This document shows, piece after piece, positions 3,928 through 61,908 of a stretch of DNA of 64,000 nucleotides. The stretch is from contig SYLI01000048.1 in assembly GCA_005809105.1 (NCBI GenBank), positions 555-64,554 of the forward strand. The letters run 5' to 3'. The notes beneath the pieces are model-generated. The model ran no database searches. It was not told the origin of the DNA and worked only from the letters and a program-made list of their open reading frames with translations. Position numbers and translations under genes: made by a program. Source of the DNA: Verrucomicrobiales bacterium. GTDB taxonomy: Bacteria; Verrucomicrobiota; Verrucomicrobiia; Limisphaerales; UBA1100. The first letter of the stretch is position 1, and each line of letters begins with the position of its first letter.

Positions 3928-6900
3928 TCAGCGCAGGATGAGTGCGTCGGCCAGGTCCAAGTCGAAGAGCAGATCCTTGCCATCGCGCGCAATGGGCCTT
4001 CCCGATGCCAGCGTGGCACTGGTGGTTGGCAGCGTGGTGCTCAGGCGCAGTTGTTTCACCGGCCCGGCGCTCCAGTTGACCAAGATGACGGCCGTGCCCT
4101 TGGGCGATTGGATGACGGAGGGTTCAACCAGTTTCTCCGAACAGGTGACCGGACGCTCCACCTTGGCAAGGGCTGAACCGATGATCGCGCTGGCAGCAGG
4201 GTGAAACTGCGTGGGGATGAAATGCGCAAAGGATTCGTTGACCGTGCCGCGGTCAACAGGCCGCTTGGGCACGGCTGGATGATAATACGCCAGGCCCGGA
4301 AGGAAGGCGCAGTAGATGGCCTTGCCGCTGCCTTGCGCACGCTCGGTGAGAGCGGGAGTGCCGTCATTCAATTTCCAGGTAACCTTCGCGGTCTTCGCCG
4401 TGATGCGGCTGCGGACACCGATGACCGGCAGCGAGGCGGCCTTGTCCGATCCGGCGGCATCGGCTTTTGCAAAGTCGATCGGTGACACGAAGGGCAGGTC
4501 CTGTTTAATCATGTCCACCTGCGCGCCGGCGGGCTCGTCCAGCGCGGTCTGCTCGATGCCCAACAACTCGCGCAGCGCCGCATTGGGGCGGCTGAGTTCG
4601 TCAAACATGCCCGCTCCCGCCGTGGCGAAGAGCGTGCCACCGCGAGCCACCCACGCGGCGATCTGCTTGCTGGCCGATTGCGACACGTGGGCATCGGTGA
4701 GATAGAGCGCGCGGTAGCCATCGAGCGTGCTGTTGTGCGCATCGGCCTCCACCACAAAATCCAGCGGCGCCTGCTGGTGGATGATGGCGGTGTAGAGCGC
4801 GCGCTTGGCGGCGCCAAAGGATCCGTGATTGTCATCCCAGATGTCCCCGGTTTCGCTGAACCACAACGCAGCCTGCGCCGGGCGGCTGCGTCCACTCTGG
4901 ATGATGTCCTCGAACTGGCCCATTTCCCGGAAGCTGCGCAGGATCGTGCGATACATCTCCGGCAGGCTGCAGTGGTTCTCGGTGTACGCCGCCTGCACGG
5001 GGCGGAACTCGAACAGGTTCACCACCTGCATGCCGTGGCCCAACGCGCCGTAAAAAAGGCGGCGCCAGGTTTCCGGCGTGTTGCCCGGCCAGTGGGGCAT
5101 GCAGTAGTAGTGGATCTTCGCCCCGGTCTTGCCGCGGATGCCTGCGCGGAACATGTCGAGGTTGATATTATTCATCTGCGCCGTTCCGACGGGCATCTGG
5201 AAGATGTAGTCCTCGCCCCACGGCTGCGTCATGCCCTCCTCACGGAAGACGCTGATCCACTTGTACACCTCGCCCAGATAGCGGTGGTTCGCCGGATAAT
5301 GCGGCGAGTAATTGGCGCCGATGCCCGCGTTTGGAAGATGGCGCCGCAGGATGTCCGTGCGCTGCTTGATGGCCTGGATGCCATAGTGGTACTCGAACCG
5401 CTTGGACCAGTAGAAGACGCCGGGCTTGGCGGCCTTGATGTCCTCTTTGGGGTGGTACGCCACGGCGGCCCAGTCGGGCGCGCCGCTCAGCACGTCCTGC
5501 GGCTTGAGGTTTTGCGTCTTGAGCCAGGCGACAAACTCCGCCGTGGCCGTGGCGGCGGGCGGTGTGGGCAGGCCGATTTCATCACCAAGACTGACGCACG
5601 CGATGCGCTGCGCGCGGGCACCCAGCTTCTGGCAGTATTCGGCCAGCTTCTCGGTGGGCACGCCGCGCACGTCAATGTATTCGTCCACGCGGGCGGCGGT
5701 GCTGCCGGTTTCCGTATCGGCCAGCGCGAAGAGTTTCTTAAACTCCACAATCGCCGCGTCATGCGCCGCGCCCAGCCCGGGCGAGAAGGTGCCGCCGTAA
5801 ATCACCGTCTGGGTCGGGGCGCGCCCGCGCAACGGCTCCTTCCGGATCTCGGTGAGCAGATCGTGGATCAGGTTTTCCTGCAGGCGCAGGCGGCGCGAGT
5901 AGCGCGTGTCGGCATCGGCGGCGAGCTGCAATTTGTCGGTCGCCTCGAAGGTTGCGAAGGGTTCAATCTTGCCTGCGGCTGTCTTCAGGCCAAAGACGGC
6001 GCGGCACTTGCCCTTGCACGAAAACTCCCACTGGCCGTCGTTAAGGGTATCCATCGTGCCGCCCACCTCCACCCAGTCTGAAGTTTTCCCGGGCGCAACA
6101 TCCACCTTCACCGCCGGCCAGTTGCGCAGGTGCACCCAGTAAGGCGAGTGCTGCTGCCAGTTGCCGCCTCCGGATGCGCCGCCCCCGGTGAATGCCAGGG
6201 GCGCGGCCCCGAGGTTGGTCACCTGCACCCACACGTCGCCGGCCTGCGTGAGCATGCCATCCAGCGGCAGATAGCTCTCCTTCTCGATGCGCATCTTCAC
6301 CTGTGCTTCGTCGGTGGTGAGCAGGAGGCAGTCCACGTTGCGCCGCGCGGCAGGCTCGGGCTGCGTGCCCGCACTGAGCGTGATGGTGGCCAGGCCCGGC
6401 TCGAGCTGCGCGAAGGCATCGTGGCCCTCCCACACGATGTTCTCCGAAGCGCCCCAGCTCCACGACAACTCCGTTTTTAGCTTCTCGCTGAATGCCCAGA
6501 TCTTGAGGTTGCTGCGCGCACCATAGAGGCGGTCGAGAACCGGCTTGCCGGCCTGCTCCACGCGCACGCGGAATTGCGTCTCGAAACGGTATGCCGCCTC
6601 GTATCGCGCCAGCACGAGATAACGGCCGGCCTTGGGCACCTGAACCTGAATGCGCGCCACCGCATTGGTCGCCTGCTCGGGCGCACCGAGGAATGCCTTG
6701 CGGCTGAGAAACGAGTTGGCGAACGTGGCGGCGTAATAATTCTGGCCCCACGGCTTGGCCTGCCACGATGAGGCGGCAGCGGGCTGGAACTCCTCCGCTT
6801 CAACAAGTAGGTTGCCATCCGATGAGGCCACGACCGCATGGCTGCCACGGAAGGCACCGGGCGCATCCGCCACCGCCGGAATCTGGCAGGCGGTTCCAAG

Positions 6901-7061: not shown

Positions 7062-7430
7062 TCAACGCTCCAGAGGCCAGTCTGCGGCGATCATGGCGCG
7101 GTAGCCGCCTTCCAGCGACCGCACCTGCGTGTAGCCCATCTGCTGCGCGACATCGCAGGTAAGCGCCGACCGAAATCCGCCACCGCAGTACATGATGATC
7201 TCCGTATTCTTGTCGGGAAAGCGCGCCTCAATGTCGCGTTCTAAAACACCCTTGCCCAGATGCTGCGCGTTCTTCGCGTGGCCGCGGTCCCACTCGCTTT
7301 CCTCGCGCACATCCAGCAGCACCGCCTGCAAGTTCGCGGCGAGCCTGGCGCGCGCTTCCGACAGCGACACTTCCTTCACACGAGACTTGGCCTCCTGTAC
7401 AACCTTGAGAAAGCCCGGAGCGTGGTTCAC
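7062..7430 (-). CDS. single-domain rhodanese-like sulfurtransferase
   Basis: LLDVREESEWDRGHAKNAQHL ... IIMYCGGGFRSA (active-site loop CGGGFRS) ... LEGGYRAM. The start is uncertain: GTG 7430 avoids overlap with the divergent EamA gene; ATG 7541 is the alternative. Confidence 0.75.
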   Translation of the reverse strand: MNHAPGFLKVVQEAKSRVKEVSLSEARARLAANLQAVLLDVREESEWDRGHAKNAQHLGKGVLERDIEARFPDKNTEIIMYCGGGFRSALTCDVAQQMGYTQVRSLEGGYRAMIAADWPLER

Positions 7431-7476
7431 GTGGGCAACGTAATCCCGACTTGGGAACGACTCAAACCCTTTTCCG

Positions 7477-8430
7477 TTGCCAGCGCGATGCTCAGCCGCC
7501 TTAAATCGCCGCGTGCCGCCGGCCCGGTCCAACTCTCTCATCGCGCTGACGCTGGTGGTGGTGATGGTGTTTTGGGGAGGCAACAATGCCGCCGCCAAGC
7601 ATCTCATCGCCAGCGGCTGGGGTCCCTTCTGGACAAGCTCAAGTCGCATGGGGCTTTGTGCGCTGCTACTGATGCTGCTCATGCGCTGGACACCGTGGTT
7701 TGGCGTTCGGCGCGAACCCGACCCAGCTTTGCGCCGCGAGCTTTGGTGGCGCGGTGGGCTGAGTCTGGCGGTGTACGCCGCGGTGTTCACCTACTCTCTC
7801 CAGCACACCTCCGTGGCGCGCGTGGCGGTGTTTCTGGGCGCGTCGCCGCTGTGGATGCTGCTCATGGAGGGCCGCGGCCACCACGGCTGGCAGGGCGTGC
7901 GGCGATTCGCGGCGGCGTTCATCGCCCTGTCGGGCGTGATTCTCCTCTTCTGGCCACAGTTGAGAGGCGGTGGCAACTGGCTGGGCGACGGCTTGGGATT
8001 GCTCGCGGGCGTCCTGTGGGCGGGCTACTGCCGGTTGTGCGGCGCGTTTCAGGGTCGCCTCAACGGTTCGGAGATCACGGCTCATACGATGGGCCGCGCG
8101 GCGATCCTGCTGGCACCACTCGCGGCGTGGGAGATCGCCTCCAAGCCGCCGTTGCTGGCGCCGCAGTTGGTGGGGCTTCAAGTCTACTGCGCGGTTTTTG
8201 GTGGCGTGATTGCCTTCGGAGTGTGGCATGGCGCGCTCCTGCGGTGGCCGCCGGGGCGCGTCTTCCTTTTTAACAACCTCATTCCACTCACCACCATGCT
8301 CTTCGCGTGGCAATTTCTTGGCGAGAAGGTGAGCGGCACCTTTCTGCTGGCCATGGCGCTTGTGGTGGCGGGCGTCATCCTCGGGCAGACCGGGCCGCCG
8401 CCTGCGGCGGTGCCGCCAGCCCGCGAGTGA
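7477..8430 (+). CDS. EamA/DMT-family transporter
   Basis: About 10 predicted TM helices in a two-half repeat architecture. Contains VFWGGNNAAAKHL and a C-terminal half ending GEKVSGTFLLAMALVVAGVIL. Start is TTG 7477 or GTG 7513. Confidence 0.8.
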   Translation: MPARCSAALNRRVPPARSNSLIALTLVVVMVFWGGNNAAAKHLIASGWGPFWTSSSRMGLCALLLMLLMRWTPWFGVRREPDPALRRELWWRGGLSLAVYAAVFTYSLQHTSVARVAVFLGASPLWMLLMEGRGHHGWQGVRRFAAAFIALSGVILLFWPQLRGGGNWLGDGLGLLAGVLWAGYCRLCGAFQGRLNGSEITAHTMGRAAILLAPLAAWEIASKPPLLAPQLVGLQVYCAVFGGVIAFGVWHGALLRWPPGRVFLFNNLIPLTTMLFAWQFLGEKVSGTFLLAMALVVAGVILGQTGPPPAAVPPARE

Positions 8431-11656: not shown

Positions 11657-11836
11657 GGCGGCGAGGGTGCGACCTTGCACTTTTTGCCGTGTTTCGTGTG
11701 AGTAACCTAACCTTGCCGGGTTGGTCTGTATCCTGCTACGAACACTCGCAGCGCAGGATGTCGCAGCAGGAGTAGGAACCAGGGAGGGCGCCACAAAGAG
11801 GACTCACAAGGCTGACTTGTGACCTGAACCATTGGC

Positions 11837-12346
11837 ATGCTGAAAACGATACAACTGGAACCACCCGACACGCACCATCTGGCTGCGGCCGAGGGGTGGG
11901 TTGACTTGGGCAATTTTTCCGAGGCCCAAGCCGAGATCGAGTGCATCTCTCCATTGGGCCGTCAGAACTTCAACGTCCTTCAGGTGCAGTGGCACGTCCA
12001 CAACCGGCTCAAGGAATGGCAGGACTGCCTGCGGCTTGGCCGTGTGATGATCGCGCTCAGCCCGCGCCTGCCCCAAAGCTGGATCAATTGCGGCAACGCC
12101 CTCTTCTACTTGGGCCAGTATGATGAAGCCTTCCTGCTGCTGTTTCCCAAGATGCGGGAATTTCCCAACGACGAGGCCATCCCTTACAATCTGGCGTGCT
12201 ACAAGTGCCAGTCGGGCGATTTGAAGCAGGCGCGAGCGCTGCTGCAGCGCGCCCTGCGCGTGGGCGACTACAAGCGCATCCGCAGTCTGGCACTGAAAGA
12301 TCCCGACTTGGAGCCCCTCTGGAAGGCTGGCGACTGCCTTCAGTGA
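11837..12346 (+). CDS. TPR-like repeat protein
   Basis: 169 aa with helical repeats (GNALFYLGQYDEA.., YNLACYKCQSGDLKQARALLQRAL) and a C-terminal DPDLEPLW motif shared with the 17864..18280 gene. Confidence 0.6.
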   Translation: MLKTIQLEPPDTHHLAAAEGWVDLGNFSEAQAEIECISPLGRQNFNVLQVQWHVHNRLKEWQDCLRLGRVMIALSPRLPQSWINCGNALFYLGQYDEAFLLLFPKMREFPNDEAIPYNLACYKCQSGDLKQARALLQRALRVGDYKRIRSLALKDPDLEPLWKAGDCLQ

Positions 12347-12367: not shown

Positions 12368-12946
12368 TTGACGTTGGCGCTGTTTGACACGTCCGGAGCG
12401 TCTGCCTACGTTGGCGCTTTAAGCCGGCCTGTGAATCCCCTCTGCCAACATTGCCAGCAGGAAATTGCACGGCGGCAGCTTCACCATTGCCCCGATTGCC
12501 ATGCGGCTTTCCACATCGGATGCTGGCAGCAGCACGATGGCTGTTCCAATGGCGACTGTTCGCAGGCCGCCACAGTGGCAGCCGCGCCTGAGGCACCACC
12601 CTCCAGTCACGAGCGGCCGGTGCCAGGGACTCCGGGCGCGCCCCGGCGGCTGGGCGTGCTGGTTTCCGTGGGGCCTGAGCATCCCAGTTTTGTGCATGCG
12701 CTGCGACTGGCACAGGCGGCGATGGAGGCGAAGGTGGAGGTCTACTACTACTGCCTTGATGACGCCGTGAAAGGGCTGAGCGACCCGGGGCTTCAGCAGC
12801 TTCGCGCGCAAGGACTGCGGCTCTTTGGCTGCGCCTATTCCGCGCAGCGCCGCCGCATCGCGCCGGGCGACGAGGCGCTCTACGGGGGGCTCACGATGCT
12901 CAGCGACATCATGGCCGCCACTCACCGGTTTGTGAGTTTTAACTAA
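12368..12946 (+). CDS. DsrE/TusD-like sulfur-relay protein with N-terminal Cys/His zinc-finger-like extension
   Basis: C-terminal 100 aa: VLVSVGPEH..VYYYCLDDAV..LFGCAYSAQRRRI..THRFVSFN, which resembles DsrE/TusD including the Cys context. N-terminus: CQHCQQEIARRQLHHCPDCHAAFHIGCWQQHDGCSNGDC. Start is TTG 12368 or GTG 12431. Confidence 0.65.
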   Translation: MTLALFDTSGASAYVGALSRPVNPLCQHCQQEIARRQLHHCPDCHAAFHIGCWQQHDGCSNGDCSQAATVAAAPEAPPSSHERPVPGTPGAPRRLGVLVSVGPEHPSFVHALRLAQAAMEAKVEVYYYCLDDAVKGLSDPGLQQLRAQGLRLFGCAYSAQRRRIAPGDEALYGGLTMLSDIMAATHRFVSFN

Positions 12947-12947
12947 C

Positions 12948-13316
12948 ATGGCTCCCGCGCCCAAGAAAATGCCGACGGTGCTGCTCATCATCACCAGCGA
13001 TCCGCGCAGCGGCCCGCGCGCCGCCGAGGCCATGCGTCTTGCCGGCGGCATCAGTGTCTGGCGACAGGTTCGCGTCAACATCTGCCTGCGGCATGAGGCC
13101 TCGCACGCACTCTGCGAGCATTCCGAGGAGATGGAGGGCGGGCGCCTGTTTGCCCAGTTCCTTCCGATGGTTCGGGAGTCCGGCGGCGAGATTTATGTTC
13201 AGGCCACCGACGAGACGTGCTTGGCCATCGACCCGGACACTCTTCTGTCGCGCAACCTCAAGGATGCGCGGCTGGCAGCGCTCGCCGCCGAAGCCGACTA
13301 CGTCCTGCGATTCTGA
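12948..13316 (+). CDS. DsrF/TusC-like sulfur-relay protein
   Basis: 122 aa, VLLIITSDP...ADYVLRF (TusC ends ..YDVILRF). There is a 1-nt gap after the previous stop. Confidence 0.65.
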   Translation: MAPAPKKMPTVLLIITSDPRSGPRAAEAMRLAGGISVWRQVRVNICLRHEASHALCEHSEEMEGGRLFAQFLPMVRESGGEIYVQATDETCLAIDPDTLLSRNLKDARLAALAAEADYVLRF

Positions 13317-13318
13317 CC

Positions 13319-13507
13319 ATGCGCCGCATCCTTCACATCACCACCCGCGAGGAGGACGCGCTGGCCCGCAGCATGAGGGGGCTGCAGACCGAGGCGGGCC
13401 ACGACGTCGTCTGCATCGACCTCTCGGTGGTGGCACTCGACACCGAGGCAGACTACTCGGTGCTGGTTGAAGAAATCTTCAAGGCCGACTCGGTACAGGT
13501 CTGGTAA
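13319..13507 (+). CDS. short DsrH/TusB-like protein
   Basis: 62 aa, MRRILHITT...DYSVLVEEIFKADSVQVW (TusB: MLHTLH...DYTDFVRLTVKHPSQMAW). There is a 2-nt gap after the previous stop. Shorter than canonical TusB. Confidence 0.5.
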   Translation: MRRILHITTREEDALARSMRGLQTEAGHDVVCIDLSVVALDTEADYSVLVEEIFKADSVQVW

Positions 13508-14207
13508 GCAGACTCTCGAGTATCCGCCTGGCGGCCTCGCACGGATCGGCTGCGAGGGTGATGGGGCGCCCGATCACCAGCCCGTCGGCTCCTGCCTCCA
13601 TTGCCTCGGCAGGAGTCATCGTTCGTTTCTGGTCTCCTGCGGCTGACTCGGCAGGGCGGATTCCCGGGGTGATGAGACGCATCGAGCGCGGCAGTGCGCG
13701 GCGCAGCATCGGCAGTTCGCGCGGCGAACAGACCAGCCCCTGCAATCCAGCGGTACAGGCCAGATTCGCCAGCCGTTCCACTTGGGCAGCCGCATCCCCT
13801 GCCACACCCACGCTGGCTAGGTCGGCGTCATCCAAACTGGTCAGTACCGTGACGGCCAGCACCCAGGGCGCCGGTCGGTTCAACTCGCGCGCGGCCGTTT
13901 CTGCCGCGTCCTGCGCAGCGCGCAGCATCGCCAGCCCGCCACTCGCGTGAACCGTGAGCATCTGCACATCCAGCCGCACGGCGGCGGCAACCGCGGCGGC
14001 CACCGTGTTAGGGATGTCGTGGAACTTGAGATCAAGAAAGACGGACGCGCCAGCGGCGCGCAGGTGCCGAACGATGTCGGGCCCCTCGGACACGAAGAGC
14101 TCCTTGCCCACCTTCACCGCGCCCACCACGGGTGCCAGCGTCTCTGCCAGATGCAGCGCGCGCGCGGCGTCGGGGACATCGAGCGCGACGATGAGCGGAT
14201 TTTGCAT
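13479..14207 (-). CDS. pyrF: orotidine 5'-phosphate decarboxylase
   Basis: NPLIVALDV.., DLKFHDIPNTV, VHASGG, GRPI. ATG 14207 is preferred; ATG 14225 would overlap the divergent mfd start. Confidence 0.9.
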   Translation of the reverse strand: MQNPLIVALDVPDAARALHLAETLAPVVGAVKVGKELFVSEGPDIVRHLRAAGASVFLDLKFHDIPNTVAAAVAAAVRLDVQMLTVHASGGLAMLRAAQDAAETAARELNRPAPWVLAVTVLTSLDDADLASVGVAGDAAAQVERLANLACTAGLQGLVCSPRELPMLRRALPRSMRLITPGIRPAESAAGDQKRTMTPAEAMEAGADGLVIGRPITLAADPCEAARRILESLLTRPVPSRP

Positions 14208-60613: not shown

Positions 60614-61908
60614 AGCCTGGCGAAGAAAGCCCGCGCCCTTCCAAGGGCCTGCGCACCGCGCCCGGCTTGTCGCGCCGGCAATTCGCAAAGGCGACATCGG
60701 CTTTGGCGGCCGTCGCGATGGCCGATCCATGGCCGTGGACATCGCCCCGTGCGGACGCCGCGGTGCCAGCCGCTGCCGTGAAACCATCCCCGGATCCCGT
60801 GGCGTTTCCCCATCGCCTCCTCACACCGGCCGCACAATTTCGCGACGTGTCCCGGGGCAATCCCCGCCCGCATTCGCTCAAGGGCGACGCCCTGGTTCAG
60901 GCGCGCCTCACCCCGCAGACGTGGCGGATGGAAGTGGTGGCCGACCGGGCGGTGGACGCGGTGGTGAAGGTGACGCCGGATCCCGGCCGGGAATTGACGC
61001 TGGGCGGGGGCACGGCGCTGGATTTGCCGGCGTTGCTCGAGCTGGGGAAGAAGCATGAGGTGCGGCTTCTCAAGGCGATGCAGTGCCTCAACATCCCGGC
61101 GCCGCTGGGTCAGGGTTTGTGGGAGGGCGTGCCGTTGCGCGAGGTGCTGCGGCTCTGCGGCCCGCTGCGCAACGTGCGGCGCGTGTACTACTGGGGCTTT
61201 CACAATCAGGATCCCAAGCAGGTGTTTCGTTCGTCCTTGAGTTTCACGCAGGCGATGGAAACGGCGCCGGGAGAGATGCCGCCCTTTCTTGCCTACCGGC
61301 TCAACGGCGAGCCCATCTCGCTCATTCGTGGCGGCCCCGTCCGGATGATCATCCCGTGGGCGCATGGGTTCAAATCGATCAAGTGGCTCCAGCGCATCAC
61401 GCTCACCAACGACCATCGCGCCAACGACACGTACGCCGAACAGAACAACGATCCCGAATCGCATCTCAAAACCGCGGCGTACCTGGACGATCTCCCGGCG
61501 AAGATTCCGGAAGGCAATCCCGTGCACCTCTTAGGCCAGGTCATCTCAGGCTTGTCCGGAGTGAAACGCGTCGAGTATTCGCTGGCGAGAGAGGCCGATG
61601 ACGTCCGCGAGCTGCGCTGGAGCGAGTGCCAGCTTGAGGAGCCACCCGCCGACTGGACGGCGGTGTTGCCCGCGGGAGTTTCGCCAAGGCAGGTTCTCGG
61701 ATTTAATCCCCAGACGGGAGGGCCGCTCTCCTGGCCGCTGCGCTACAGCATGATTTCGTGGATGGCCACGCTCAAGGGATTGGCCAGGGGAAAATACACG
61801 GCGCGAGCGCGAGCGGTGGATCTCAATGGCTTTGCCCAGCCCGAGCCGCGGCCCCATCCCACCAGCGGGCGCAACGCGCCCGACGCGCGCGAGTTTGAGG
61901 TGGTGTAG
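60610..61908 (+). CDS. TAT-exported molybdopterin-dependent oxidoreductase (sulfite-oxidase fold)
   Basis: GTGA start/stop overlap with the upstream gene. RRQFAKATSALAAVAMA; WEGVPLREVL; YRLNGEPISLIRGGPVRMIIPWAHGFKSIKWLQRI; and a C-terminal Ig-like dimerisation-type domain. Confidence 0.8.
   Translation: MKPGEESPRPSKGLRTAPGLSRRQFAKATSALAAVAMADPWPWTSPRADAAVPAAAVKPSPDPVAFPHRLLTPAAQFRDVSRGNPRPHSLKGDALVQARLTPQTWRMEVVADRAVDAVVKVTPDPGRELTLGGGTALDLPALLELGKKHEVRLLKAMQCLNIPAPLGQGLWEGVPLREVLRLCGPLRNVRRVYYWGFHNQDPKQVFRSSLSFTQAMETAPGEMPPFLAYRLNGEPISLIRGGPVRMIIPWAHGFKSIKWLQRITLTNDHRANDTYAEQNNDPESHLKTAAYLDDLPAKIPEGNPVHLLGQVISGLSGVKRVEYSLAREADDVRELRWSECQLEEPPADWTAVLPAGVSPRQVLGFNPQTGGPLSWPLRYSMISWMATLKGLARGKYTARARAVDLNGFAQPEPRPHPTSGRNAPDAREFEVV

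Follow-up and report, generated by a model that had tools for sequence, protein, structure and literature searches.

The subject of this analysis is a cluster of three short consecutive genes, here termed g1, g2 and g3, in a stretch of 64,000 nucleotides (nt) from assembly GCA_005809105.1 of a Verrucomicrobiales bacterium (contig SYLI01000048.1, positions 555 to 64,554 of the forward strand; hereafter the window, with positions counted from its first letter). An earlier note, made without database searches, had read these genes as a DsrE/F/H (TusD/C/B)-like trio with a zinc-finger-like N-terminal extension on the first product and a truncated third subunit. We found that g1 and g2 fall into the DsrE/DsrF family by profile matches and modelled fold, that the trio is conserved across Verrucomicrobiota, and that the extension of g1 is, on the strength of its profile matches and conserved ligands, a RING-like Prok-RING_1 domain present in a single subclade. 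The genes and their parts are as follows:

12431 to 12946, plus strand: g1, combining a Prok-RING_1 finger, a Pro-rich linker and a DsrE-like domain; 171 amino acids (aa) from a conserved GTG, stop codon TAA at 12944-12946.
12443 to 12561, plus strand: C4HC3 finger of g1, with C5, C8, C20, C23, H28, C31, C38 and C43.
12562 to 12640, plus strand: Pro/Ala-rich linker, about 25-75 aa long and variable in length and sequence in alignments of the orthologues.
12641 to 12943, plus strand: DsrE-like domain of g1, about 100 aa (Pfam PF02635).
12752 to 12754, plus strand: codon of Cys108, the second invariant cysteine of g1 (motif Y-C-[LI]-D-[DE]-A-V; 25 of 25 sequences).
12830 to 12832, plus strand: codon of invariant Cys134 (motif LF[GA]-C-x-[YF]-x-A-x-[RKQ]-R; 25 of 25 sequences), the predicted persulfide-carrying residue.
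12948 to 13316, plus strand: g2, a DsrF/TusC-like subunit of 122 aa (ATG at 12948, TGA at 13314-13316).
13319 to 13507, plus strand: g3, a mini subunit of 62 aa in the gene position of DsrH/TusB (ATG at 13319, TAA at 13505-13507).

All three genes are read from the plus strand, and the stop and start coordinates place 1 nt between g1 and g2 and 2 nt between g2 and g3, in agreement with the gaps given in the earlier note. When one genome from each GTDB species was scanned with a pattern, 44 loci were obtained, and the order g1-g2-g3 was kept in essentially all of these species genomes, an arrangement that is far beyond chance. Almost all of the loci belonged to metagenome-assembled genomes (MAGs) of Verrucomicrobiota (Pedosphaera, Limisphaerales and Verrucomicrobiales). 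The near relatives of the window shared the order lipA-ligA-TPR-trio-pyrF (convergent)-mfd, where TPR stands for a tetratricopeptide repeat protein, as part of a clade-specific housekeeping gene order; in distant clades the trio was found next to a glycosyltransferase and a hybrid histidine kinase, or to mutL, or to ychF...dnaG. Further housekeeping genes seen in its context were pyrH and frr. Because the neighbours differ between clades, the trio itself is to be regarded as the conserved unit. It should be added that a few family members occurred in MAGs labelled Saccharimonadales, Baltobacteraceae and Chitinophaga pinensis; these are probably mis-binned contigs, since the distribution is otherwise exclusively verrucomicrobial.

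Taken alone, the C-terminal domain of g1 scored 23.9 bits against PF02635, for which the cut-off is 22.7, and the full-length 192-aa open reading frame scored 21.3 bits, just below it. All 25 diverse g1 orthologues matched this family, the best with E=9.3e-9. A search of the PDB sequences with the g1 family profile returned DsrE of Allochromatium vinosum (2hy5_A) as the best match, at a marginal E=0.12, and when four Tus/Dsr subunits were specifically compared with g1, TusD scored highest. Cys134 aligns with Cys78 of DsrE (CVAAAQRRG) and with Cys78 of TusD in the conserved C-x5-RR(G) loop, where CAYSAQRRRI of g1 is identical to CVAAAQRRGI of DsrE in 7/10 residues; the DsrE/TusD placement of the g1 C-terminus, first suggested from the sequence alone, is therefore upheld by the family score and by the position of this cysteine. 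Cys108 aligns to the Y/H of FFYHDGV in DsrE and is specific to the g1 family, being absent from DsrE and TusD. The motifs that had been quoted from the trio (LFGCAYSAQRRRI, THRFVSFN, ADYVLRF and DSVQVW) were all located in it, and the reference strings given with them for comparison agree with the PDB sequences: SQMAW of TusB with 2d1p_C (...HPSQMAW), YDVILRF of TusC with 2d1p_B (...NYDVILRF) and VCVAAAQRRGI of DsrE with 2hy5_A, which contains ...VVCVAAAQRRGI. The corresponding C-terminal end of DsrH in the PDB is ...CDTVQAW.

The window protein g2 matched PF02635 weakly (13.7 bits), and 13 of the 27 g2 members analysed matched it, with a best E=4.7e-5. An AlphaFold2 (AF2) model built from 121 sequences had a mean predicted local distance difference test score (pLDDT) of 92.6, and its Foldseek comparison with the PDB gave 3mc3 (E=1.9e-5, TM 0.74), an uncharacterised DsrE/DsrF-like protein, ahead of DsrF (2hy5_B, E=1.7e-4), followed by 2d1p_A (TusD), 3pnx_A (a putative DsrE) and 2hy5_A (DsrE). 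A search with the g2 family profile against the PDB sequences produced no match. As judged from the model and the family matches, g2 has the DsrE/DsrF fold and is a member of this family, as its earlier DsrF/TusC reading had anticipated. The g2 proteins possess no conserved cysteine and share an invariant motif, D-P-R-x3-R-x2-E-A-x-R-x-A-x-G-x3-W. At 90% identity the family comprises at least 1,465 clusters, some of which carry the JGI name 'sulfur relay DsrF/TusC family' or the NCBI name 'DsrE family protein'.

The third gene is the least conventional of the three. A profile search recovered at least 418 clusters of g3, counted at the same identity level, all 58-66 aa long, annotated as 'hypothetical' and devoid of any Pfam domain. 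The length of 62 aa noted before is hence correct, but the description as a truncated DsrH is misleading, as about 60 aa is the rule throughout the family. The AF2 model (pLDDT 89.5) predicts a beta-alpha-beta-loop-alpha-beta mini-domain, and the N-terminus has the conserved motif LHILTRxxD, the C-terminus DY..LLE.IF.ADSVQ.W. Both ends, (I/L)LH(I/T)...(R/K)xP and DY..(F/L)...D.VQ.W, resemble those of DsrH/TusB, and a last-strand signature D-x-V-x-x-[FW] is common to g1, g2, g3, TusB/C and DsrH, g3 sharing it in the longer form A-D-x-V-x-x-[FW] with g2, TusC, TusB and DsrH. In our judgement g3 is probably a DsrH-derived mini-subunit, an assessment that draws on its fixed place as the third gene and on these terminal likenesses, of which the C-terminal match is weak. 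One locus, L048, has at 5448-5744 a 98-aa in-frame chimera, in which the N-terminal two-thirds of g2 run into the C-terminal helix and strand of g3 (…LLEEIFQAESIQTW), with no separate g3 after it. It may have arisen naturally, by deletion or fusion, which would agree with g2 and g3 having equivalent elements at the C-terminus, or else be an artefact of MAG assembly. It should also be mentioned that a g3 of about 58 aa was left uncalled on a 6.03-Mb contig behind L057 (L057 approximately 6353-6530).

The N-terminal part of g1 shows the spacing C-x2-C-x11-C-x2-C-x4-H-x2-C-x6-C-x4-C, including an H-x2-C-W motif, and all eight predicted zinc ligands are conserved in six orthologues. Against the Pfam model Prok-RING_1 (PF14446) the finger of the window reached 23.4 bits (E=5.9e-5), below the cut-off of 29.1 bits, and those of L010, L011 and L012 passed it with 36.6-37.6 bits. 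Prok-RING_1 is a prokaryotic RING/PHD-like binuclear treble-clef finger, whose gathering score the orthologous g1 fingers thus reach, and with which they have in common the eight-ligand C4HC3 pattern and the H-x2-C-W and G-C-x4-C motifs. The ratio of nonsynonymous to synonymous substitution rates (dN/dS) over the 46 finger codons was 0.09 for the window versus L002, 0.06 for L010 versus L011 and 0.23 for L012 versus L004, with synonymous sites near saturation. Judged from these codon comparisons the finger is clearly translated and under purifying selection, and by profile and ligand pattern it is a genuine RING-like Prok-RING_1 domain with predicted zinc binding, which bears out the zinc-finger or RING-like character proposed for the extension.

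With the finger as the query, phmmer was run exhaustively against 1.84 billion (1.84e9) representatives and returned 20 relatives, the best with E=3.9e-12. Ten of these relatives were scanned against Pfam: nine passed the Prok-RING_1 gathering score and the remaining one, P0255, stood just below it at 28.6 bits. The finger was matched in two to four stretches in 16 of the 20, and several carried long hydrophobic stretches. The nearest Prok-RING_1 relatives are thus mostly multi-finger proteins, whereas g1 has a single finger joined through a Pro-rich linker, which we read as a flexible tether from its composition and variability, to a DsrE-type domain. The architecture of g1 was seen in no member of this set of 20, and a DsrE domain was found in 0/10 of those scanned against Pfam. 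Within the g1 family, the finger was carried only by the window, P0001, the L002 group, the L004 group, L010, L011 and L012/13. In a neighbour-joining tree of the concatenated trio these finger-bearing loci constituted one clade (100/100 bootstraps), and because the carriers are monophyletic a single acquisition of the finger is indicated. The fused architecture is consequently real, although limited to one subclade and not a feature of the family as a whole.

The start of g1 had to be revised. In 7/7 finger-bearing orthologues a GTG, replaced by TTG in one of them, lies exactly four codons 5' of the first cysteine, and in L002 a TAA stop directly precedes this GTG. We therefore place the start at GTG 12431 and not at TTG 12368, as it is the only start common to all seven orthologues; judging by this comparison, TTG 12368, which gives the 192-aa product, probably lies 21 codons 5' of the true start. 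The extension, previously given as 85 aa, is accordingly about 70 aa long, and it stays in place when the gene is begun at the conserved downstream start. In public records the finger is cut off (window 12431-12640; P0002, P0003, P0006 and P0007, with P0271 also listed). For instance, the call P0002, whose g1 is 99% identical, begins at V85 and loses the finger, while the calls P0001, P0004 and P0005 take it in wholly or partly. Gene callers choose downstream starts of g1 because the conserved start is GTG or TTG. Two corrections to annotation follow from these observations, in that the finger is systematically removed by gene callers and g3 is sometimes left uncalled.

The closest counterparts of the trio are DsrEFH of type I (A. 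vinosum, 2HY5) and TusBCD (Escherichia coli, 2D1P). Relays of this type are known from sulfur oxidisers, from tRNA thiolation in Gammaproteobacteria and, in the form of type II, since 2026 from sulfate reducers. The DsrEFH/TusBCD complex is an alpha2-beta2-gamma2 hexamer in which two heterotrimers are stacked. As in the trio, three genes lie side by side, the first two encode proteins of the DsrE/DsrF fold, the second subunit is without the cysteine, and the E/D-type cysteine stands in C-x-x-x-A-x-R-R, aligned with Cys78. The signatures of the C-terminal strands are likewise similar (…DYVLRF in the trio and …YDVILRF in TusC; …DSVQVW in g3 and …DTVQAW in DsrH). The differences are nevertheless considerable. 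Sequence identity is too low for detection by BLAST or by the NCBIfam models; the subunits of the trio measure about 100, 116-125 and about 60 aa, as compared with 130, 119-136 and 95-102 aa; and g3 lacks the central alpha2-beta3-alpha3-beta4 part of the DsrH/TusB third subunit and has no DsrH profile match. Furthermore, g1 has an extra invariant cysteine, no dsrC/tusE, tusA, dsrAB or mnmA is located nearby, nearly all members are from Verrucomicrobiota, and one subclade has the Prok-RING_1 fusion.

A second point of comparison is offered by the type II DsrEFH of cable bacteria, Desulfobacterota and Nitrospirota, which was missed by sequence annotation, was recognised via AF2 and transfers sulfur through Cys67 (Plum-Jensen et al., ISME J 2026, PMC13293266). 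It is similarly a divergent and compact DsrEFH encoded by three syntenic genes, the trio being compared with it here on the basis of its description. Its active Cys67 has a parallel in the cysteine at about position 68 of the finger-less g1 orthologues (Cys68 in L015), in an E subunit of about 105 aa. The genes of type II stand in synteny with tusA and yeeE/yedE and occur together with reductive dsrAB (PMC13293266); unlike this, no tusA, yeeE/yedE or dsrAB was a neighbour of the trio in the window or in the 44 related loci. No zinc finger is reported for type II (PMC13293266), in contrast to the one subclade of the trio. Verrucomicrobiota are not mentioned in the text and supplements of that paper, as far as these are accessible, and our literature search retrieved no paper on the trio family in Verrucomicrobiota.

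With modest confidence, we lean towards the view that g1, g2 and g3 specify, one subunit each, a compact sulfur-carrier complex of the DsrEFH/TusBCD type that is specific to Verrucomicrobiota. In such a complex g1 would be the E/D-type subunit, the Cys134 of which would accept persulfide sulfur from a donor (cysteine desulfurase, rhodanese or a TusA-like protein) and hand it to an acceptor protein; g2 would be the F/C-type subunit devoid of cysteine, and g3 a remnant of about 60 aa at the H/B position. The relay would serve biosynthetic sulfur trafficking, such as thio-modification of tRNA or of a cofactor, and not dissimilatory sulfur oxidation. This biosynthetic role is probable because the neighbours are housekeeping and variable genes and there is no dsrAB, sox or hdr nearby. 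In one subclade, that of the window, g1 gained its N-terminal Prok-RING_1 finger on a flexible Pro-rich linker, and most likely this finger would serve as a protein-protein adaptor on a tether, recruiting the relay to a partner. A more specific proposal holds that the finger, in the manner of a eukaryotic RING, would dock a ubiquitin-like (Ubl) sulfur carrier of the ThiS/MoaD/TtuB/Urm1 type or an E1-like activating enzyme. We consider this very improbable; nothing found here contradicts it, apart from the fusion nothing speaks specifically for it, and no Ubl or E1-like gene is present within the window. The sulfur-relay view as a whole is supported by the precedent of type II DsrEFH, which is equally divergent and yet sulfur-transferring (PMC13293266).

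Several results weigh against a relay of this kind. None of the three products matched any NCBIfam TusB/C/D or DsrE/F/H model, and the direct hhalign comparison of g1 with g2 was weak (E=0.067). No relevant Pfam family, DsrH PF04077 included, was matched at E<=1 by any of 24 g3 members (0/24), and the confident g3 model has no significant structural neighbour. The second invariant cysteine of g1, evident from the alignments, suggests that the chemistry may differ from that of a classical single-cysteine relay. DsrE-fold proteins with possibly non-relay roles also exist (YchN-like proteins; the structural-genomics entries 3mc3 and 2fb6, among others). Moreover, tusA, tusE/dsrC, mnmA and a cysteine desulfurase are missing from the 64-kb window and are not conserved near the trio elsewhere. 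A Pfam scan of the called genes, covering about 2.9-62.8 kb of the window, detected no TusA, DsrC/TusE, MnmA, DsrAB, ThiS/MoaD or cysteine desulfurase, and tblastn of E. coli TusA, TusE, MnmA, TusD and TusC against the window gave nothing below E=0.2, with TusD and TusC missing the trio itself; the lack of tusA/tusE/mnmA or dsrAB/dsrC partners remarked on in the earlier note is therefore confirmed. No functional partner was recognised as a conserved neighbour across 46 loci.

These points give room for other explanations. The trio might be a DsrE-fold assembly without any sulfur relay, that is a heteromeric scaffold or a module binding a ligand such as an anion, a nucleotide or a metal, in which the function of the two invariant cysteines of g1 and of the invariant g2 pocket DPR...R..EA.R...W would be binding or the sensing of redox state instead of persulfide transfer. 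Consistent with this are the missing relay partners, the uncharacterised nature of the best structural match of g2, the cysteine of g1 that DsrE and TusD lack, and the strongly charged invariant motif of g2, unseen in TusC and DsrF. However, the C-x5-R-R surroundings of Cys134 are almost the same as those of the active site that experiments have defined in DsrE/TusD, the organisation of E-type, F-type and small gene mirrors dsrEFH/tusDCB, and the comparably divergent type II complex is a sulfur transferase (PMC13293266), so that both the non-relay assembly and the binding role of its cysteines appear unlikely to us. Alternatively, the trio could be a strict equivalent of TusBCD, delivering sulfur to MnmA for s2U34 in tRNA with an unrecognised TusE or TusA counterpart encoded elsewhere. 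This is the sulfur-carrier complex narrowed to one particular target, for which there is no support here. The housekeeping context (ligA, pyrF, mfd, pyrH, frr, ychF, dnaG), the broad conservation within the lineage and the best score of g1 against TusD would agree with it; on the other hand there is no NCBIfam TusB/C/D equivalog match, tusE, tusA and mnmA were not found in the window, and no result points to the acceptor. In addition, TusBCDE is for the most part restricted to the Gammaproteobacteria, and in many bacteria U34 is thiolated without its help. We accordingly hold strict equivalence to be quite improbable.

A further question concerns the membership of g3. The earlier placement of g3 in the DsrH family did not hold at the profile level, as no profile assigns it there: apart from the Pfam result given above, the g3 family profile found no relative and no DsrH/TusB chain among the PDB sequences, Foldseek of the g3 model against the PDB produced generic half-Rossmann or flavodoxin-like, half-domain matches with E>0.1 and no DsrH/TusB in the top 50, and hhalign of g3 with TusB and DsrH aligned the C-terminal 18 aa alone (probability 7%), the match at this end covering 18-19 aa with P about 0.005-0.008. 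The protein could thus be an unrelated small alpha/beta adaptor, chaperone or regulator following a DsrE/DsrF pair, which would make the system a two-paralogue assembly with an accessory. Yet both termini of g3 resemble those of DsrH/TusB, its gene is invariably the third, and the L048 chimera fits equivalent C-terminal elements; an unrelated origin is for these reasons somewhat doubtful. Finally, the finger might not be translated at all, the true g1 being the annotated protein of about 105 aa and the Cys-rich frame upstream of it non-coding. The public calls P0002, P0003, P0006 and P0007 begin downstream, there is no obvious Shine-Dalgarno sequence 5' of GTG 12431, and most members of the g1 family have no finger. 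But in all seven lineages the frame is open from the conserved GTG/TTG, the metal ligands are retained, all eight of them, and dN/dS amounts to 0.06-0.23 where synonymous sites are close to saturation. Three of the orthologous fingers score above the gathering threshold of Prok-RING_1, and the calls P0001, P0004 and P0005 include the finger in whole or in part. We find a non-coding finger scarcely credible.

The genes around the trio that deserve mention in connection with the sulfur-carrier complex are these:

11837 to 12346, plus strand: TPR protein of 169 aa directly upstream of g1 (Pfam TPR_2/TPR_19; synteny).
7062 to 7541, minus strand: single-domain rhodanese of 159 aa (PF00581) with the active-site loop CGGGYRS.
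13479 to 14207 (or to 14225), minus strand: pyrF, encoding orotidine monophosphate (OMP) decarboxylase, a convergent neighbour outside the system.

Among the nearer relatives only, 21 loci retain the TPR gene, both those that have the finger and those that do not. The single element returned by a promoter and terminator scan was a terminator-like site at 11661-11678, following ligA, so that no terminator separates the TPR gene from g1; the TPR gene is possibly co-transcribed with the trio as an accessory, and its product is a candidate interaction partner. The rhodanese, about 5 kb upstream of the trio and adjoining EamA, glutaredoxin and lipA genes, is the only other sulfurtransferase-type gene within the window. 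It is 69% identical to the rhodanese of 7 related loci, within a generally syntenic block, and its link to the trio is hypothetical. The convergent 3' ends of g3 and pyrF overlap by 29 nt (13479-13507), as the earlier note had it, and an overlap of equal length recurs in the orthologous locus L002 (5335-5363).

No Rfam family of relevance was matched between 11000 and 14500, and membership of the trio in a defence system finds no support, there being no PADLOC match. At 60718-61908 (plus strand), far from the trio and with no evident link to it, the window encodes a molybdopterin oxidoreductase of the sulfite-oxidase family (PF00174, 396 aa). At about 33.0-37.1 kb and 45.2-51.1 kb it has clusters with three tandem DUF1501 genes, PSCyt1/PSCyt2/PSD1 genes and a further DUF1501 gene, and in addition a sulfatase gene; the genes of these clusters are typical of Planctomycetota and Verrucomicrobiota and hence fit a verrucomicrobial origin of the window.

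As for novelty, the fold assignment is already known, as g2, and weakly g1, are labelled as DsrE/DsrF-family proteins in some databases. What is new is the conserved Verrucomicrobiota-wide three-gene unit with a third subunit of about 60 aa that is outside all family libraries, together with the second invariant cysteine of g1 and the Prok-RING_1-DsrE fusion hidden by mis-called starts. This fusion is one of few functional contexts for an enigmatic bacterial finger and provides a handle for finding its partner. Should the finger indeed dock a Ubl protein, the DsrE-type persulfide would be directly coupled to the formation of a Ubl thiocarboxylate in a verrucomicrobial relay, and RING fingers would be linked functionally, in prokaryotes, to the descent of the ubiquitin system from sulfur carriers.

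If the trio does encode a sulfur-carrier complex, it would represent a third, very divergent DsrEFH lineage, abundant in Verrucomicrobiota, and its g3 of about 60 aa would show the extent to which the H subunit can shrink. To our knowledge, Verrucomicrobiota have not been noted for Dsr-type sulfur metabolism, and the trio would therefore imply an uncharacterised housekeeping route of sulfur trafficking in these bacteria.

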